Notes under the pieces: model-generated
The model's database searches: none
What the model was told of the DNA's origin: nothing
What the model saw: the letters and a program-made list of their open reading frames with translations, nothing else
Made by a program: the position numbers and the translations under genes
From: a virus
UHGV virus genome: UHGV-0313617
Length of the DNA stretch: 11,099 bases
Strand: one strand, 5' to 3'
Shown: positions 1 through 7,053 of the stretch, in pieces
Layout: each line of letters begins with the position of its first letter
Position numbering within the stretch: position 1 is the first letter of the stretch

Positions 1-80
1 AGGCAAAATGCAACGGCGCTAACCAATAAGAGACAATGAGACGGGAATTATTATTACACGCGTGCGCGCCCGTTTCAATA

Positions 81-109
81 TCCAAAGGATTTGACACCTT
101 TCGGTTTTA
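81..109 (+). promoter_or_regulatory. Sigma70-like promoter candidate upstream of the first gene
   Basis: TTGACA (81-86), 17-nt spacer, TAGTTT (104-109). A GAGGG Shine-Dalgarno lies at 139-143, 7 nt before the ATG at 151. Confidence 0.5.
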
Positions 110-150
110 GGTGTAGTTTCGTTGGTCATTAACCAACTGAGGGCAGAGCA

Positions 151-480
151 ATGAATGTAAACGACGCAATCGAAATGTTAACGCAGACTGTTAGCAGTGA
201 AACAAGCCGGTCATGGGCTTATACCGATGCCGTTGGGGCGGTGCTGTTTGAGGTCGAGCGCCTGCGCAGTGTAGAAAAAGAATTACGCGCCAGGCTGGAA
301 TTGCTCAACGGTACGGCGGCGAGCAAGCTGCAAAAACACAATGAGGAAATGGAAGAATACAAAAAGCAGGTTATCCGTTTGCGCGCCGAGGGCAAATCAT
401 GGGCAATGATTGCCGAGTTGACCGGAATTAATCAGAGCACAGTGCGCTCCTGGGTACGCAATAATAAAACTTCTAAGTAA
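151..480 (+). CDS. Small putative DNA-binding protein with a C-terminal helix-turn-helix
   Basis: 109-aa ORF with a promoter and RBS upstream. C-terminus (GKSWAMIAELTGINQSTVRSWVRN) looks like a short HTH. It sits 10 nt upstream of the replication gene. Confidence 0.6.
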   Translation: MNVNDAIEMLTQTVSSETSRSWAYTDAVGAVLFEVERLRSVEKELRARLELLNGTAASKLQKHNEEMEEYKKQVIRLRAEGKSWAMIAELTGINQSTVRSWVRNNKTSK

Positions 481-490
481 GGCCGCGGCA

Positions 491-2755
491 ATGAGCTTAA
501 TTAAATTCGCTGTAACAAGACCCGCTAAAAAAGGCGAAAAAGCCAGGGCGGAAAACTTCCAGATGACCACCGATGAATTTTTCGAATTTATCAAAGATGC
601 GAAAGAAATCTCCTCGGTGCATATCAACAAGACGGAAGATAAAGCCGAGTATGCGCGCCGCAAGCGTAAGGCCGACGGCATCGTGGCGTATACCAGTGAC
701 GGATTGCGTCGTAAGACCAGTGCGGTGGACCGCTCGATCCTGTTCTTCGATATCGACCGTACCGACACCCGCACCCTACGCCGCTGCCGTAAGGCGTTCA
801 TTGACGCGGGTCTGGAACATGTGTTTCACACCACAACCGGCGACCGTCACCCGCTTAAAGGTGGAACGCGTTGCGCTCGATTCCTGGTGCTCACTGACAA
901 GCCTGTACCGGCTGAAGACCTGGGCCGCGTCCAGTATGCACTATTACACCAACTGGGTCTGTCAGATGTGGACTTCGACGATTGCACGAAAGACACAAAC
1001 CGCCTGATGTACCTGCCACACCAGCAGTCTGTTATTAAGTGCCACTATGGCAAGCGCGCCCGCGTCCGTCGTCTGCTCCGCCTGGCTGACAAGCTGGGGG
1101 TGGAAAAAGAGGAAGTACGCCGCGAGCTTACCCAGGGCGACGACGCAGTGGCAGACGGTATTCTGGACTGGTGCTTCCAGGCAGGATTCGAGGAGTTATC
1201 TTCCGGGCGGGGCTATGAAGTGCCGTGCCCGAACGAACATCTGCACAGCGGCGAAGGGTCCACCGCTATTATGGTCAAGGATGGCGAGATCCGTTTCAAG
1301 TGTATGCACACCGGCAACGAGTGTTGCTCGGAACTGAACAGACACCAGCACCTGGCGCTGCGTCTTATCGGGATCCCGGACCACCTGAACGTCGAGCCAC
1401 ACAATATGTCCCGTAAGCAAATCGCCGCCATCCTTCCGGGGCTGGACGACGAGGAAGTCGAATCCTTATATGAACATATTGTTGATGCGGTTGGCGACGG
1501 CGAAGAATACGGCGTGTGCACCGATGCGGATCTGGATAACGAGCCGGTTGCGCTGTTCAGTAAGCACGACCCGATTATCGAGGGGTTGATTAACTTTAAA
1601 TCGACCTGGTACATGGCGGGTGAGTCGAATATAGGTAAGTCTTTCTACGTGCTGGGCCAGATGGGCGCGGTTGCCGCGGGTATTCCGTTTGGCGGTGCGA
1701 AGGTCGTCCAGTCTCATTGCTTCTATTTTGACGCGGAAGGTGGCGAAGCCTCCAACCAGCGTAAAGAAGCATTGCAGATTAAATATGAGCACGACCTGGA
1801 CAAGCTGCACATTATAGACCTGCAGTCACGCGGCTGGGATATCACCAGCAAATCAGGCTTGCGCGAAGTTATCAGCTTTATCAACCGCACCGCTAACGGC
1901 GAACCGGTTGGCCTGGTGGCGTTCGACTCACTCAACCAGACTGTTGCGTTGCGGTCCGCTGATGCTAAACCGTTCGACGAGAACAACGCCAGCGATATGG
2001 GTGAAGTGGTCAAAGCGCTGAAGGCCATCGCGGAAAATACAGGTGGCAGTGCGGGCGTCATCCACCACCCGGCTAAAGGTGCAAACGGCAGCAGAACGCC
2101 ACGCGGGTCCGGCGCGCTGCATGGTGCTGTCGATTCTGCGTTCTTCCTGGAACAGCCGGACGACAACCAGCCCGGACAATTGAACCTGTATCACGAAAAG
2201 TCACGTAACGGCATCAAGCAAGCGCCGCGCGGCTTCGTCCTGCTCAAGTGCAAGGTGAAGGTGGATCTCCGCAAGTCAGAAGCGTTCGAGGCGCACCAGT
2301 CCACCAGCACCGGGCCAGACTTTGGCGACGTGGTTGCCGGATGGGACGTCAAGCCGATTGCCTCCACGCCACGCGACGAGACTCTCTACCTCGTACCGGT
2401 TGCCCTGGCACCTTTCGCTATTGAACAGGCGAAGGCGGCGGGCAAGGCCGCGGTTAAGGAAGAGAACACCGCCGGACCGCGCAACGAAAAAGAGAAAGTG
2501 CTTTATGCGGCACTGGAAAAACTGATGGAAGATAACCCGGACCATACTGGATTCAGTAAATCGGCAATTGTCCGCCAGGCGGGACTCGCAAAAGGGGGCA
2601 CGTCGACGAAGGCAATCGACGATATGGTGGAGCGCGGAGTAATAGGTTTTTATACCGATCCGCACACCGGGGCCCTCTATGGGTCGTCTAATTTGGTCAT
2701 CAAATCGGATATCCCTATCACGCTTTCAGCGACCGATGACGATTTAAAAGATTAA
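491..2755 (+). CDS. Replication protein: primase-polymerase-like N-terminal domain, Cys/His zinc-ribbon, RecA-like (AAA_25/RepA-type) ATPase, C-terminal putative winged-helix domain
   Basis: 754-aa ORF. Acidic DxD motif ILFFDIDRTD (nt ~741-764). Cys/His cluster CPNEHLHSG...FKCMHTGNECC (nt ~1225-1325). Walker A GESNIGKS (nt 1619-1642) and Walker B-like LVAFDSL. C-terminal ~100 aa look like a small helical DNA-binding domain. Confidence 0.85.
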   Translation: MSLIKFAVTRPAKKGEKARAENFQMTTDEFFEFIKDAKEISSVHINKTEDKAEYARRKRKADGIVAYTSDGLRRKTSAVDRSILFFDIDRTDTRTLRRCRKAFIDAGLEHVFHTTTGDRHPLKGGTRCARFLVLTDKPVPAEDLGRVQYALLHQLGLSDVDFDDCTKDTNRLMYLPHQQSVIKCHYGKRARVRRLLRLADKLGVEKEEVRRELTQGDDAVADGILDWCFQAGFEELSSGRGYEVPCPNEHLHSGEGSTAIMVKDGEIRFKCMHTGNECCSELNRHQHLALRLIGIPDHLNVEPHNMSRKQIAAILPGLDDEEVESLYEHIVDAVGDGEEYGVCTDADLDNEPVALFSKHDPIIEGLINFKSTWYMAGESNIGKSFYVLGQMGAVAAGIPFGGAKVVQSHCFYFDAEGGEASNQRKEALQIKYEHDLDKLHIIDLQSRGWDITSKSGLREVISFINRTANGEPVGLVAFDSLNQTVALRSADAKPFDENNASDMGEVVKALKAIAENTGGSAGVIHHPAKGANGSRTPRGSGALHGAVDSAFFLEQPDDNQPGQLNLYHEKSRNGIKQAPRGFVLLKCKVKVDLRKSEAFEAHQSTSTGPDFGDVVAGWDVKPIASTPRDETLYLVPVALAPFAIEQAKAAGKAAVKEENTAGPRNEKEKVLYAALEKLMEDNPDHTGFSKSAIVRQAGLAKGGTSTKAIDDMVERGVIGFYTDPHTGALYGSSNLVIKSDIPITLSATDDDLKD

Positions 2756-2830
2756 ATTCTGCGCGCATTGGTTGCCGATATGGGAATTCCCATATCGGTA
2801 AAAGATTAAATTCTGCGCGCATTGGTTGCC
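2745..2830. repeat. Two identical 32-bp direct repeats flanking a 20-bp perfect palindrome
   Basis: TAAAAGATTAAATTCTGCGCGCATTGGTTGCC at 2745-2776 and 2799-2830. The first copy overlaps the stop codon of the replication gene. Between them lies GATATGGGAATTCCCATATC (2777-2796), a perfect palindrome. Each repeat holds the 8-bp palindrome TGCGCGCA and ends in ATTGGTTGCC. Confidence 0.9.
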
Positions 2831-2915
2831 ATTTTGAGTGTTTTTATCTGGTCGTATTGGTTGCCGTGTAGTGTAAATATAGTGAATAGTTATGCAATAA
2901 AACTGCATAAAGTAA

Positions 2916-3018
2916 GCGGGACAAAAAGCGGGACAGACCAGGGGCGGGACAAAGCGGGACAGCACCCCTGTCCCGCCCCGGATGACGCGGCCTGGCGAGG
3001 AGCGGGACAGCGGGACAG
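2916..3018. repeat. Array of seven GCGGGACA(G/A) iteron-like repeats including a perfect 9-bp-stem hairpin
   Basis: Copies at 2916, 2928, 2944, 2954, 3002 and 3010 (forward) and 2968-2976 (inverted). 2954-2976 reads GCGGGACAG-caccc-CTGTCCCGC. An AT-rich stretch (2866-2915) precedes the array. Confidence 0.85.
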
Positions 3019-3024
3019 CACCCC

Positions 3025-3073
3025 AGTCTTTCAGACTAGACGGGGGGTCTGGCACCCCCCTCGTCTGAGACTG
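3025..3073. repeat. Imperfect inverted repeat / hairpin with a GGGGGG...CCCCCC core
   Basis: CAGTCTTTCAGACTAGACGGGGGG-tctggca-CCCCCCTCGTCTGAGACTG. The arms CAGTCT/AGACTG, CAGAC/GTCTG and G6/C6 pair, with bulges. Confidence 0.7.
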
Positions 3074-3232
3074 CATAAAATCCGGGATTGCATAATACAC
3101 GGCAACAAGATGCGAATTGCGGTCGTCGATGAACTAGGCAACCAATGCGAGTTGCAGAATGGTGGGTGAAAAATGCAGTTTGCAGTTTCAGCAGATAGCG
3201 ATCAACTTTTTCATACGCGTGATTAATATTGG

Positions 3233-3261
3233 TTGCGCCCACCCCAGCACCCTGCTATATT
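3233..3261 (+). promoter_or_regulatory. Promoter candidate for the downstream small-gene cluster, overlapped by ATTGGTTGC motifs
   Basis: TTGCGC (3233-3238), 17-nt spacer, TATATT (3256-3261). ATTGGTTGC copies at 3228-3237 and 3259-3268 overlap the -35 and the -10/+1 region. Confidence 0.4.
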
Positions 3262-3289
3262 GGTTGCACACCAACATGAGGACTGAACG

Positions 3290-3595
3290 ATGAGAGCTTT
3301 AATCTGGAATTACACAATGGCGGTGGCGAAGCTGTATGAAGCGAAGCACACAGACAGCAACGCAGACGACGCGCGCCAGGTTGTCATCCTGGCCCAGCAG
3401 GGAATCATGCACGCGTTCGATGATATGTTTGCCAGCCTGGACGAACTGGAACCGCTGCGCGTGGCAATCTGCGAATATGCGATGGCTTTTGCCCGCGAGC
3501 GCCTGGCGTATCGCTTCGGGATCGGTGAGACGGCAGTGACAAACGTCGCCCGGATTAAAGCCCAGCGCGAGCTATTCGCCCAGCTTGCGAAATAA
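3290..3595 (+). CDS. Hypothetical protein
   Basis: 101-aa ORF with a GAGGA Shine-Dalgarno 7 nt upstream of the ATG. No recognisable motif. Confidence 0.6.
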   Translation: MRALIWNYTMAVAKLYEAKHTDSNADDARQVVILAQQGIMHAFDDMFASLDELEPLRVAICEYAMAFARERLAYRFGIGETAVTNVARIKAQRELFAQLAK

Positions 3596-3604
3596 GGGGG
3601 CAAA

Positions 3605-3874
3605 ATGGACCGCAGACGCGCAAAACGGCTTTCCTGGAGCATTAGCCTGCATTGCGTACGAATATGGGCTGAGAATGCGAATGAGGGCGATTCTGTGTTC
3701 TGGAGTTATCGCGACGATGTGAAGCCATTAACGCAGACCCGCTACTTGCGCCAGTTCGCAGCGAAGCACGGATTCTATGTGCGGACTTCCTTGCAACCAA
3801 TGGGTGTTCGTATTACATTACGCCGGAAGCCTGCCATTGAGCGGGCAGGAAAACACTGGAGACTGAGCAAATGA
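3605..3874 (+). CDS. Hypothetical basic protein
   Basis: 89-aa ORF with an AGGGGG Shine-Dalgarno just upstream. Arg/Lys-rich. Its stop overlaps the next start (ATGA). Confidence 0.6.
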   Translation: MDRRRAKRLSWSISLHCVRIWAENANEGDSVFWSYRDDVKPLTQTRYLRQFAAKHGFYVRTSLQPMGVRITLRRKPAIERAGKHWRLSK

Positions 3875-6043: not shown

Positions 6044-6059
6044 TACGAGGTAACACAGT

Positions 6060-6473
6060 ATGTTAAAAAGCATTCTTGATCATAACGCCGACGCACTTGC
6101 TGCACTGGCTAAAACCGAAGACCCTGGCGCACGCGCTATCATCGCGGACACTATCAGCCATGCAGGCGTCTTTGACGCTAAGCTGCCGAGTGTTCCGGAA
6201 AGAAAGCCCGTGAAAAGTGCTACCGTGACTATCACACCGAATTCAGTCGCAGTTGACGGAACGGCTACTGCTTCTGTTGACGTCTTGCCCGCTGACGCGA
6301 CTAACAAGACAGGGGTCTGGGTGTCTACGAACCCTGCCGGTGCAGAAATCGATGCAAAAACTGGCAAAATCACAGCAAAATCGGCAGGTGGCGTTTATAT
6401 GTTTTGGGTGGCTGCCGACGGTAGTGGGGTGCTGGGGTCTGCGACCATCAACGTAACGGAAAAAGTAGAATAA
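6060..6473 (+). CDS. Big_2 (bacterial Ig-like) domain protein of unknown role
   Basis: 137 aa with a GAGG Shine-Dalgarno 9 nt upstream. The C-terminal ~85 aa (ATVTITPNSVAVDGTATASVDVLPADATNKTGVWVSTNPAGAEIDAKTGKITAKSAGGVYMFWVAADGSGVLGSATINVT) match the Big_2 beta-sandwich pattern. No signal peptide or transmembrane segment. Confidence 0.7.
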   Translation: MLKSILDHNADALAALAKTEDPGARAIIADTISHAGVFDAKLPSVPERKPVKSATVTITPNSVAVDGTATASVDVLPADATNKTGVWVSTNPAGAEIDAKTGKITAKSAGGVYMFWVAADGSGVLGSATINVTEKVE

Positions 6474-6479
6474 AACACA

Positions 6480-6503
6480 AGCCCGGAATCAACCGGGCTT
6501 TTT
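6480..6503 (+). terminator. Rho-independent terminator after the lysis cassette
   Basis: Stem AGCCCGG (6480-6486), loop AATCAA, stem CCGGGCT (6493-6499), then a T-run to 6503. Confidence 0.75.
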
Positions 6504-6508
6504 ATTGC

Positions 6509-6537
6509 TTGACTCGCAACCAACATAGGCCCATACT
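6509..6537 (+). promoter_or_regulatory. Weak promoter candidate carrying two GCAACCAA motifs
   Basis: TTGACT (6509-6514), 17-nt spacer, CATACT (6532-6537, poor -10). GCAACCAA at 6516-6523 and 6538-6545. A strong Shine-Dalgarno (GAGGAGGAGGA, 6548-6558) follows. Confidence 0.35.
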
Positions 6538-6568
6538 GCAACCAAACGAGGAGGAGGAGTAACACATC

Positions 6569-6655
6569 ATGGCGCGTAACGATATTTATGTAATAGCAAT
6601 ATGGTCCGCAGCGGCCTTTATTGGAATGGCAATTTGTGAGGTGATGAATGGCTGA
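6569..6655 (+). CDS. Candidate 28-aa hydrophobic micro-protein
   Basis: Read by hand: MARNDIYVIAIWSAAAFIGMAICEVMNG. GAGGAGGAGGA lies 10 nt upstream. The stop TGA sits inside the sequence AATGGCTGA that contains the next ATG. Confidence 0.4.
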   Translation: MARNDIYVIAIWSAAAFIGMAICEVMNG

Positions 6656-6722
6656 GTTAATCCGCCTTATGGCGCGAGATGAACACGTAAAAGTCACATT
6701 CTACGATGGTGGGAAGTGTTGA
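6648..6722 (+). CDS. Candidate 24-aa micro-protein
   Basis: Read by hand: MAELIRLMARDEHVKVTFYDGGKC. Start overlaps the upstream micro-ORF. Its stop (6720-6722) is one nt before the ATG at 6724. Confidence 0.3.
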   Translation: MAELIRLMARDEHVKVTFYDGGKC

Positions 6723-6723
6723 G

Positions 6724-6936
6724 ATGATTAGACAAGTATTCATGAGCACGCAGGCCACACGCCTGAAAGAGCTACGCAAACAACTCGAAGGCTTGCGCCG
6801 ATTCGAACGAACGGCAACGGCAATAGGCATGTCAATCAGTGAGCGGATCGAGATACTATCTCAAATACGCTACACAGAAGGCGCCATACGCGAAGTAGAA
6901 AGCATGTTAACCCGATACTACGGTCGCGCCGTTTAA
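6724..6936 (+). CDS. Hypothetical small protein (70 aa; alternative start at 6706)
   Basis: ORF in the track as 6706..6936. The ATG at 6724 is immediately after the upstream stop (TGTTGAGATG). Helical, charged sequence. A terminator follows. Confidence 0.5.
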   Translation: MIRQVFMSTQATRLKELRKQLEGLRRFERTATAIGMSISERIEILSQIRYTEGAIREVESMLTRYYGRAV

Positions 6937-6943
6937 CCCTCCC

Positions 6944-6969
6944 AGCCCGCCGATTTGGTGGGCTTTTTT
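6944..6969 (+). terminator. Rho-independent terminator
   Basis: Stem AGCCCGCC (6944-6951) pairs with GGTGGGCT (6957-6964), with one G-U pair. Loop GATTT. T-run 6964-6969. Confidence 0.65.
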
Positions 6970-6983
6970 GTGCCTGTTATAAT
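6955..6983 (+). promoter_or_regulatory. Extended -10 promoter candidate for the packaging operon
   Basis: TGtTATAAT at 6975-6983 (perfect TATAAT at 6978-6983 with an upstream TG). A weak -35 TTGGTG (6955-6960) lies 17 nt upstream, inside the terminator's 3' arm. Confidence 0.5.
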
Positions 6984-7053
6984 CCCCCTTAGATGGCAGG
7001 GCCGTCTCCTATGTTGCCGATGGTCGGCGCATATGCACAAAAGGGCTTAAATC

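Follow-up and report, generated by a model that had tools for sequence, protein, structure and literature searches.

Does a single polypeptide of 754 residues, encoded near the start of an 11,099 nt stretch of viral DNA (UHGV virus genome UHGV-0313617; that whole stretch is here called the window), prime and unwind DNA, and might it also recognise the origin at which it does so? A sequence-only reading had suggested this from an acidic DxD motif, a Cys/His cluster, a Walker A/B ATPase and a C-terminal helical tail, all in one chain. The open reading frame (ATG start; its coordinates take in the stop codon) and its motifs are present exactly as described, the motifs are invariant in homologues, and the interpretation is supported, with origin recognition as conjecture.

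The gene is an already catalogued phage replication gene, and its type of architecture is already published. The window has ~90% nucleotide identity to Gluttony, Envy and SECphi18, i.e., it is from a Dhillonvirus (HK578-like E. coli phage). The whole protein matches PHROG 3228 (phrog_3228), ‘replicative helicase-primase’, end to end (E=0), phage UAE_MI-01 has an annotated helicase-primase with 99.7% identity to it, and many GenBank records, including those of the relatives with ~90% nucleotide identity, already carry that name for the gene. A Shine-Dalgarno-like AAGG lies 8 nt 5′ of the ATG. Salmonella homologues are 44–48% identical (by taxonomy FSL SP-031 is a Cornellvirus), and Jerseyvirus-type proteins have the ATPase half alone in common with it. 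Conservation was judged in a main alignment of 32 homologues (44–99% identity) and, for the N-terminal domain, in a diverse alignment of 19 sequences with identities of only 19–33%.

Very probably the product is a replicative primase-helicase, one multidomain polypeptide in which a primase domain of archaeo-eukaryotic type (AEP, primase-polymerase) is followed by a zinc module, an ATPase resembling RepA, a winged-helix-like domain and finally an acidic tail (Table 1). The motifs are not there by chance: the homologues without exception retain D87, D89 and D163, the Cys/His five, both Walker motifs and D751-L752.

Table 1. Positions in the window of the helicase-primase gene, its parts and its neighbours
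Feature	Coordinates	Strand	Basis
109-aa helix-turn-helix (HTH) protein, HK578 gp45 equivalent	151..480	+	Pfam HTH_23 and HTH_28, residues 71-105
Complete helicase-primase ORF	491..2755	+	ORF list; phrog_3228 E=0; UAE_MI-01 99.7%
AEP (primase-polymerase) catalytic domain, residues 1-205	491..1105	+	
AEP motif I FFDIDRTD, residues 85-92, metal-binding D87 and D89	743..766	+	Invariance; S-2L alignment
Probable AEP motif II strand K123-GGTRCA-R130, Arg for canonical His	857..880	+	R130 invariance; hhalign
AEP motif III D163, then Arg (R171-L)	971..1018	+	Conservation; S-2L alignment
Zinc-binding domain, residues 218-335; candidate ligands C246, H252, C271, H273, C279 (nt 1226-1327)	1142..1495	+	Conservation; model
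RepA-like (AAA_25, RecA-fold) helicase ATPase, residues 357-620	1559..2350	+	Pfam; PDB match; Foldseek
Walker A G377-ESNIGK-S384	1619-1642	+	Invariant in 32 homologues
Walker B LVAFD479	1913-1930	+	Invariant in 32 homologues
HHPAK (H525-K529)	2063-2077	+	Pairs with RSF1010 RepA HHASK
Presumed Arg-finger block RGSGALHGAVD (starts R538)	2102-2134	+	RGSGAL pairs with RSF1010 RepA RGSSVL
Winged-helix-like domain, residues 660-740	2468..2710	+	AlphaFold model, topology alone
Conserved acidic tail ATDDDLKD	2729..2752	+	Conservation
Conserved non-coding region directly 3′ of gene; repeats and stem-loop; candidate cis-acting site	2756..3289	.	

The N-terminal domain as a probable primase

What is the N-terminal half, for which neither Pfam nor NCBIfam has a match? 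With the whole protein as query, curated AEP profiles gave no Pfam family besides AAA_25 at E<=1 and zero matches in NCBIfam, and so of the Pfam models proposed beforehand AAA_25 was matched while PrimPol, Prim_Zn_Ribbon and PriCT gave nothing. A profile of the domain had zero matches among PDB sequences, and indexed proteins, queried with the diverse alignment of the domain, likewise gave zero. It is structure comparison alone that reveals the AEP catalytic fold, with its RRM-like core, in residues 1–205, and such a comparison had been foreseen as the check on this domain. The nearest structural neighbour is S-2L PrimPol, with RepB′ also among the best, and both are members of the PrimPol-PV1 supergroup. 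Remote relatives of the domain carry PriCT_2, VapE, D5_N/DUF5906, DUF3987 or AAA_25, and since these are classic AEP partners they too count for an AEP primase domain, the recognition of which is part of the modest added value of the analysis.

The DxD motif had been assigned to a primase-polymerase-like domain, and there it belongs: D87 and D89, together with D163, are invariant in the 32 homologues, and the three, with R130, are unchanged across the 19 diverse domains. An hhalign alignment of low probability (23%) pairs D87, D89 and D163 with E85, D87 and D146 of S-2L PrimPol, for which the roles of the catalytic residues are described (PMC8065100), and R171 with its R154. The three acids would coordinate two catalytic metals, and the conserved basic residues K58, R73, R127, R130 and R171 would contact nucleotide triphosphates. 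Acidic motifs I and III are features of PrimPol-PV1 also present here; motif IV of that supergroup is a conserved Arg and then a hydrophobic residue beyond motif III (Kazlauskas 2018, PMC5862659), and R171-L172, nearly invariant in the family and 8 residues past D163, is the candidate for it and for a counterpart of PolpTN2 R231.

And motif II? The same alignment, at its low probability of 23%, sets R127 against K115 and R130 against H118 of S-2L, and judged from sequence an Arg-for-His variant, with R130 in the place of the histidine, is probable. The nearby H120 varies across the diverse N-terminal set. In the DR0530-like family Arg or Lys is known to take the place of the motif II histidine (PMC5862659). 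The named families of PrimPol-PV1 are, in contrast, defined by a motif II His or Gln, where this protein apparently has Arg130; sequence-level assignment to those named families yielded none, and the names of Escherichia and Salmonella phages are absent from the searched supplements of PMC5862659.

Could the domain instead be a degenerate AEP remnant, non-catalytic and kept for contacts with DNA or protein, with the host DnaG doing the priming and the phage protein being a helicase or helicase loader only? That AEP sequence profiles miss the domain, and that the motif II His is without a clear candidate, would suit this. However, the three metal-binding acids and several of the basic residues are strictly invariant even at 19–33% identity, the zinc module, a companion of active primases, is invariant also, and there are other AEP families known to have Arg or Lys in place of that His (PMC5862659); loss of catalysis is thus very improbable indeed.

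From zinc module to acidic tail

Beyond this primase domain, the Cys/His cluster that had been picked out has five residues, C246, H252, C271, H273 and C279 (C-H-C-H-C), which are all invariant, both in the 32 homologues and in 13 diverse ones. The domain is modelled with β-strands in 241–271 plus helices, at pLDDT 77–91. Pfam scans of its members had zero matches, Prim_Zn_Ribbon, zf-CHC2 and Toprim included, and PRC1 and Thy-1, found with the zinc-domain profile among PDB sequences, were set aside as chance matches. By analogy with the PriCT/zinc domains that come after AEP in other primases, it would grip template ssDNA at dinucleotide formation.

The proposal of an AAA_25-like ATPase is borne out by Pfam AAA_25 on residues 357–531 (E 2.3e-19; 70.2 bits, where the gathering score is 27), and the domain is RepA-like: the sole PDB sequence match of the region, a marginal one (E 0.025), is RSF1010 RepA. 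Foldseek matches are to RecA, Rad51 and DnaB, with the ATPase domain and the linkers modelled at low confidence (the full-length monomer model has mean pLDDT 66.6 and pTM 0.35). HHPAK has the pattern of the RepA-type sensor His (HHxxK), and the RGS block is the one that in RepA holds the arginine finger. By analogy with RSF1010 RepA, the ATPase would assemble as a hexameric ring and unwind DNA with ATP, 5′-3′ being the direction to expect of a RepA-like enzyme.

What had been called a C-terminal helical tail is modelled as two parts, a domain of winged-helix-like form and an acidic tail. In the AlphaFold model helices 666–681, 690–697 and 703–715 are followed by two strands (pLDDT ~70–84), and on that topology resemblance to a winged helix is probable. 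A Pfam scan of the domain had zero matches. The only PDB match to its profile, BurrH (E 4e-37), was rejected as a repeat-summation artefact because 21 near-identical TALE-like repeats each score 3–13 bits on one helix-turn segment. The tail, whose consensus is D-E-D-L-E, has D751-L752 invariant in the 32 homologues. Either winged helix or tail may contact DNA or the polymerase.

Proposed priming and unwinding in one chain

How does the arrangement compare with that of known systems? In T7 gp4/DnaG-type proteins, too, one chain unites zinc module and primase with a RecA-fold ring helicase and acts alongside a phage-encoded polymerase, and an acidic C-terminal tail is common to T7 gp4 and the Dhillonvirus protein. 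In T7 gp4 that tail touches the polymerase. The domain order had been thought to set the present protein apart from these, and so it does, as their primase is of Toprim type with the zinc module first, whereas here the primase is AEP with the zinc module after the catalytic domain. Though correct, the contrast is unremarkable since the order AEP, PriCT/zinc domain, RepA-type helicase and winged helix is published for PrimPol-PV1 primases and is standard for AEP-helicase fusions (Kazlauskas 2018, PMC5862659). Among the latter, PrimQH and the All3500-like ones especially have the domain order seen here, with a P-loop helicase that is RepA, DnaB, VirE, DUF3987 or D5.

S-2L PrimPol (PDB 6ZP9) has only ~14% sequence identity to the Dhillonvirus protein, has PriCT-2 where the latter has its Cys/His module, and has a VirE/SF3-like ATPase in contrast to a RepA-like RecA-fold one. 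In RSF1010 three different proteins serve as helicase (RepA, PDB 1G8Y), primase (RepB′, PDB 3H25) and origin binder (RepC), whereas in the Dhillonvirus protein, whose sequence similarity to that system is marginal (E 0.025), helicase and primase are fused, and possibly the origin binder too.

Complete related genomes carry their own DNA polymerase gene, and in them it lies, with genes for an ssDNA-annealing protein and an exonuclease, in an adjacent divergent operon. With such a polymerase available, the protein most likely opens the fork and primes for it. We infer primer synthesis, hexamer formation and helicase polarity: the ring would open the fork, the tethered primase domains would place lagging-strand primers, and the phage’s own polymerase would extend them. 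Might the AEP domain rather be mainly a DNA polymerase (PrimPol) that copies or repairs the phage genome, as in S-2L or NrS-1, and not a primase making short primers? Priming and polymerising are combined in many PrimPol-PV1 enzymes, and the closest structural neighbour is itself the replicative polymerase of cyanophage S-2L. However, in S-2L the PrimPol is the sole polymerase, while in Dhillonviruses and a Serratia relative a DNA polymerase of ~740–760 aa is encoded separately, beside the replication module, which makes a second replicative polymerase unnecessary, and we regard a mainly polymerising role as improbable.

Genetics gives one further line of support. HK578 escapes the P2 OLD defence by mutations that fall within gp46, the helicase-primase, and within the gp45-gp46 promoter (bioRxiv 10.64898/2026.07.10.737580), which ties the gene to replication initiation. 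The same report describes gp45-gp46 as an operon. In the window just 10 nt separate the stop codon of the HTH reading frame from the helicase-primase ATG, and the two are probably co-transcribed.

The downstream element and the question of an origin

Directly 3′ of the gene, repeat finding and counts against shuffled sequence give seven copies of GCGGGACA at 2916–3017, i.e., within 100 bp, and motif counts against shuffles give six of ATTGGTTGC in the region 2756–3289 as a whole. A conserved stem-loop at 3024–3073 (-15.1 kcal/mol, z -4.1) begins 270 nt past the stop codon. The downstream repeats are invariant in four phages. A related genome has a second copy of the repeat/stem-loop element within the tail-gene module, at a distance of ~16 kb. 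In a phage with just 47% identity in this protein, other repeats, TTCCGCACA, occupy the same two kinds of place. The region is a candidate cis-acting site, either origin or regulatory. An Rfam scan of 2600–3400 gave nothing credible, and a consensus promoter and terminator scan of 1–3400 did no better than on shuffled sequence. A cos site was also considered and dropped, the published Dhillonvirus cohesive end ATCTTAAGGG being absent from the window. Two related records end at window ~3186–3188; HK578 numbering starts at the terminase gene by convention.

Is the protein, then, an origin-recognising initiator as well? Phage P4 alpha and pRN1 ORF904 are single-chain proteins with primase, helicase and C-terminal winged helix, and each has a cis-acting origin near its gene; the pRN1 operon, moreover, opens with a small DNA-binding protein. 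The enzymes themselves differ, as the primase of P4 alpha is Toprim and the helicase of ORF904 is SF3, in contrast to AEP and RepA-like here. The P4 alpha helicase is also SF3. If the likeness extended to function, the target of the winged helix would be the GCGGGACA iterons or else the stem-loop, and the protein would melt the DNA there, load itself and prime the leading strand; this would extend the primase-helicase explanation and is compatible with it. The seven repeats and conserved stem-loop right beside the gene, the duplication of the element in a related genome, and the distinct repeats of the 47%-identical relative at corresponding places all favour it. So does P4, where two clusters of octamer iterons, ori and crr, are bound by the winged helix of the alpha protein. 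For pRN1 a stem-loop just downstream of the AEP-helicase gene serves as origin (PMC4234260), and a role in binding origins has been proposed for the winged helices of AEP-helicase fusions (PMC5862659). However, every copy of the element, in either genome, heads a late-gene block in the direction of transcription, so that promoter, activator or terminator modules fit equally well; the neighbouring HTH protein is no worse a candidate for binding it; and ATTGGTTGC is dispersed over the genome, often intergenic or near gene starts, and so looks regulatory. An initiator role is accordingly possible though doubtful. A fuller version, in which a self-contained P4-alpha-like initiator with an Arg-for-His AEP primase would read GCGGGACA octamers and stem-loop through its winged helix, the two copies of the element would form a two-site origin like P4 ori/crr, and the D-D-L tail would bring in the phage polymerase, is unlikely.

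As discovery the gene offers little. What has been added to the predicted primase-helicase is the structural evidence for AEP, a probable Arg-for-His motif II, and definition of the zinc ligands and the acidic tail; the repeat-rich element downstream is the more intriguing item. Nevertheless, residue-level domain limits could guide the biochemistry of a primase-helicase family present in ~240 sequenced enterobacterial phages and, with HK578 escaping OLD through mutation in its helicase-primase (in that 2026 preprint), could aid in reading escape mutants.

An annotated phage replication gene

The helicase-primase has been annotated before as a phage replication gene, and its type of architecture is in the literature. 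The entire window has ~90% nucleotide identity to Dhillonvirus (HK578-like siphoviruses, Escherichia phages, e.g., Gluttony_ev152, Envy, SECphi4 and SECphi18), and in the matching phage records, 159 in total, orthologs are named "replicative helicase-primase", "DNA primase/helicase" or similar. PHROG 3228, "replicative helicase-primase", matches it over its full length (E=0), and the annotated helicase-primase of phage UAE_MI-01 is 99.7% identical. Relatives covering at least 80% of the protein come from 243 phage records; the full-length ones include those of Salmonella Cornellvirus (e.g., FSL SP-031, ~45% identity) and Serratia phages of the Guernseyvirinae (~47%), and that of phage Bas70 has 34% identity over 90% of the query. 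Many 'helicase-primase' proteins of other Guernseyvirinae (Salmonella Jerseyvirus-type, Kagunavirus) match only residues ~342-698, the ATPase half, at ~32% identity, and so the N-terminal primase module differs between related genera, the helicase being common to them.

Coordinates of the helicase-primase, its motifs and the non-coding element that follows it
Feature	Position	Strand	Details
Helicase-primase ORF	491-2755	+	754 codons
FFDIDRTD	residues 85-92		
Cys/His cluster	C246, H252, C271, H273, C279		
Walker A	G377-ESNIGK-S384		
Walker B	D479		
Conserved non-coding region	2756-3289		534 nt, helicase-primase stop to next ORF
32-nt perfect direct repeat TAAAAGATTAAATTCTGCGCGCATTGGTTGCC	2745-2776 and 2799-2830		first copy spans last codons and stop
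15-nt palindrome	2772-2801		between the 32-nt repeat copies
ATTGGTTGC motifs	within 2756-3289		six, versus 0.13 expected in the entire window
GCGGGACA motifs	within 2916-3017		seven, one inverted, versus 0.57 expected
Stem-loop	3024-3073		-15.1 kcal/mol, z -4.1

Eight nt 5' of the ATG is AAGG, a Shine-Dalgarno-like ribosome-binding sequence. The ORF and motifs listed in the sequence-only reading were all found, and with 32 aligned homologues of 44-99% identity they are no chance pattern: D87, D89, D163, all five Cys/His residues and both Walker motifs are invariant, as are HHPAK (525-529), RGSxALHGAVD (538-548) and the C-terminal D751-L752. The AAA_25-like ATPase proposed there is borne out by Pfam, in which AAA_25 covers residues 357-531 at E 2.3e-19, well over threshold. 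Whether the whole protein or the domain profile is used, the sole PDB sequence match is the hexameric helicase RSF1010 RepA, with HHPAK paired to HHASK and RGSGAL to RGSSVL; structure searches match RecA, Rad51 and DnaB. The overall interpretation, a primase, a zinc module and an ATPase in one chain, is supported.

The primase domain and its partners

AAA_25 was the only Pfam match in the helicase-primase and NCBIfam gave none; the Pfam check for primase and zinc-ribbon models that had been proposed returned no match. The N-terminal domain is not recognised by these sequence profiles. When residues 1-345 were compared exhaustively with 1.84 billion cluster representatives by HMMER, only 26 clusters came up at E<=0.001, and the distant ones carry PriCT_2+VapE, PriCT_2+AAA_25, D5_N/DUF5906 or DUF3987, which are the usual domain partners of archaeo-eukaryotic primases (AEPs). 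The structural neighbours of the domain (scores in brackets) are S-2L PrimPol (6ZP9, 8.8), HP0184 (2ATZ, 8.1), Prim-PolC (6SA0, 8.1), a CRISPR-associated Prim-Pol (7NQD, 7.6), RSF1010 RepB' (3H25, 7.5) and human PriS (8B9D, 6.7), with LigD polymerase domains, archaeal PriS, mpox E5, human PrimPol and ASFV C962R ranked lower. With the full-length model, Foldseek put 6ZP9 in second place (E 4.7e-5), and a structure search of viral models yielded phage primase-helicases whose helicase partners are diverse. Among 19 N-terminal domains of 19-33% identity, K58, R73, D87, D89, R130 and D163 are invariant. In a profile-sequence alignment to S-2L PrimPol (E 8.7e-4, probability just 23%), D87, D89 and D163 pair with E85, D87 and D146, the three catalytic acids of that enzyme (PMC8065100). 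Because of the structural neighbours, the conserved acids and this residue pairing, the domain is an AEP, as its acidic DxD (D87/D89) had led the sequence-only reading to propose. The same 23% probability alignment pairs R127 with K115 and sets the invariant R130 opposite H118, the histidine of motif II. The domain probably has Arg where this canonical His would be, as is already known for another AEP family (PMC5862659).

The PrimPol-PV1 supergroup consists of bacterial and mobile-element AEPs (Kazlauskas et al. 2018, PMC5862659). In its fusions the AEP domain is followed by a PriCT or zinc-binding domain and then by a RepA, DnaB, MCM, VirE, DUF927 or DUF3987 ATPase, and the C-terminal winged helix has been proposed as origin-recognising (PMC5862659); these fusions share the architecture of the helicase-primase. 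S-2L PrimPol (AEP, PriCT-2, VirE-like helicase) and RepB', among the best structural neighbours, both belong to the supergroup (PMC8065100). The zinc module precedes the catalytic domain in T7 gp4 and DnaG, whereas here it comes after, so that the contrast in domain order drawn earlier is correct for those proteins, but the order is normal for AEP fusions. No named PrimPol-PV1 family is assigned, since motif II does not appear to match the His or Gln signatures of those families and Dhillonvirus-type phages are unmentioned in the Kazlauskas 2018 supplements (PMC5862659).

Residues ~218-335 are modelled (pLDDT 77-91) as one helix, then three or four strands, then two more helices. Across 13 diverse members, C246-P-N, H252, C271, H273, C279 and Q286 never vary. 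Judged only by this conservation pattern, the segment is a zinc-binding domain. What stands of the proposed zinc ribbon is the invariant cluster, but Prim_Zn_Ribbon, zf-CHC2 and all other Pfam models, and likewise PDB sequences, gave no match to these residues. Residues 660-740 are modelled as three helices and then two strands, the winged-helix order (pLDDT ~70-84), and the chain ends in an invariant acidic D-D-L motif; profile searches of PDB sequences and Pfam returned no family for the C-terminal domain. TALE-like BurrH did score E 4e-37 there, but the value is inflated: its near-identical repeats match a single helix-turn segment (GFSxxxIVxxAGxxxGG) weakly, and ~20 such matches are summed. 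This was set aside as an artefact, at most a curiosity. The likeness of that segment, GFSKSAIVRQAGLAKGG (window 2570-2640, residues ~686-705), to the Burkholderia BurrH repeat GFSQADIVKIAGNNGG is probably chance or convergence.

Replication context

Complete genomes of relatives have a replication module, with divergent transcription from the region directly left of the window, of an exonuclease (DUF2800), an ssDNA-annealing/binding protein, a ~760-aa DNA polymerase (annotated Pol A-like in one relative) and an SNF2-like ATPase; a Serratia relative has the same gene set. On the most economical reading the RepA-like ring helicase would unwind the fork, the tethered AEP domains would make primers for the phage polymerase, the zinc module may help with template binding at initiation, and the acidic tail and winged helix may contact partners or DNA. 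The searchable literature holds no enzymatic assay of any family member. Genetic support for a replication role comes from a 2026 preprint on HK578, where mutants escaping P2 OLD defence are mapped to gp46, the helicase-primase, and an OLD-escape deletion to the promoter of the gp45-gp46 operon (bioRxiv 10.64898/2026.07.10.737580). The 109-aa ORF at 151-480, its stop codon 10 nt before the helicase-primase ORF, matches gp45 in position as the next gene upstream in the same operon. Its only motif is a C-terminal HTH_23/HTH_28, and it is probably a small regulator sharing the operon, as gp45 does with gp46. PHROG 9366 and phage Envy call it 'transposase'; 5' of it, in region 81-120, are TTGACA (91-96) and an inverted repeat, ACACCT-N9-AGGTGT (94-114).

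The downstream non-coding element

Rfam has no match to the conserved non-coding region. Its repeats and stem are invariant, and its loop variable, in four phages. In several relatives the alignment begins only at query position ~60, an indication that they differ at the 32-nt repeat and perhaps have a single copy. ATTGGTTGC copies lie within 2767-3267, with a further copy at 3793-3801, and has 16 genome sites in SECphi18 (45 kb) versus 0.5 expected, often intergenic or close to gene starts; several copies are directly 3' of a TATATT- or TAATAT-like hexamer. With such placement, ATTGGTTGC is more probably linked to promoters or bound by a regulator than an iteron of an origin. The deposited sequences of two Dhillonviruses, Zar3M and BMA1, stop at one point in the intergenic region (window ~3186-3188); ATCTTAAGGG, the only published Dhillonvirus cohesive end (phage EE09), was not found in the window. 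Farther along, in the endolysin-small terminase interval (6044-7053), Envy and SECphi18 carry a ~1.1-kb calcineurin-like phosphoesterase ('DNA repair exonuclease') gene; that ORF is absent from the window, where an ORF of 137 aa with a Big_2 Ig domain (6060-6473) and another of 76 aa (6706-6936) take its place.

Could the element be an origin? SECphi18 has a second GCGGGACA-plus-stem-loop element at 19258-19580, directly before its tape-measure gene. Serratia phage Otaku, whose helicase-primase is 47% identical, has in the equivalent gap four copies of another 9-mer, TTCCGCACA (26491-26550), the sole other exact copies being an inverted pair in a structural-module intergenic gap (15472-15501), i.e., the same two kinds of place as for the SECphi18 element. 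This recalls P4, where ori and crr form a two-site arrangement. In pRN1 the origin stem-loop is downstream of orf904 (PMC4234260), just as the present element is 3' of the helicase-primase. A two-site, P4 ori/crr-like origin it could be. However, since every copy of the element also heads a late-gene block, it fits a late-gene module with activator sites or a terminator just as well.
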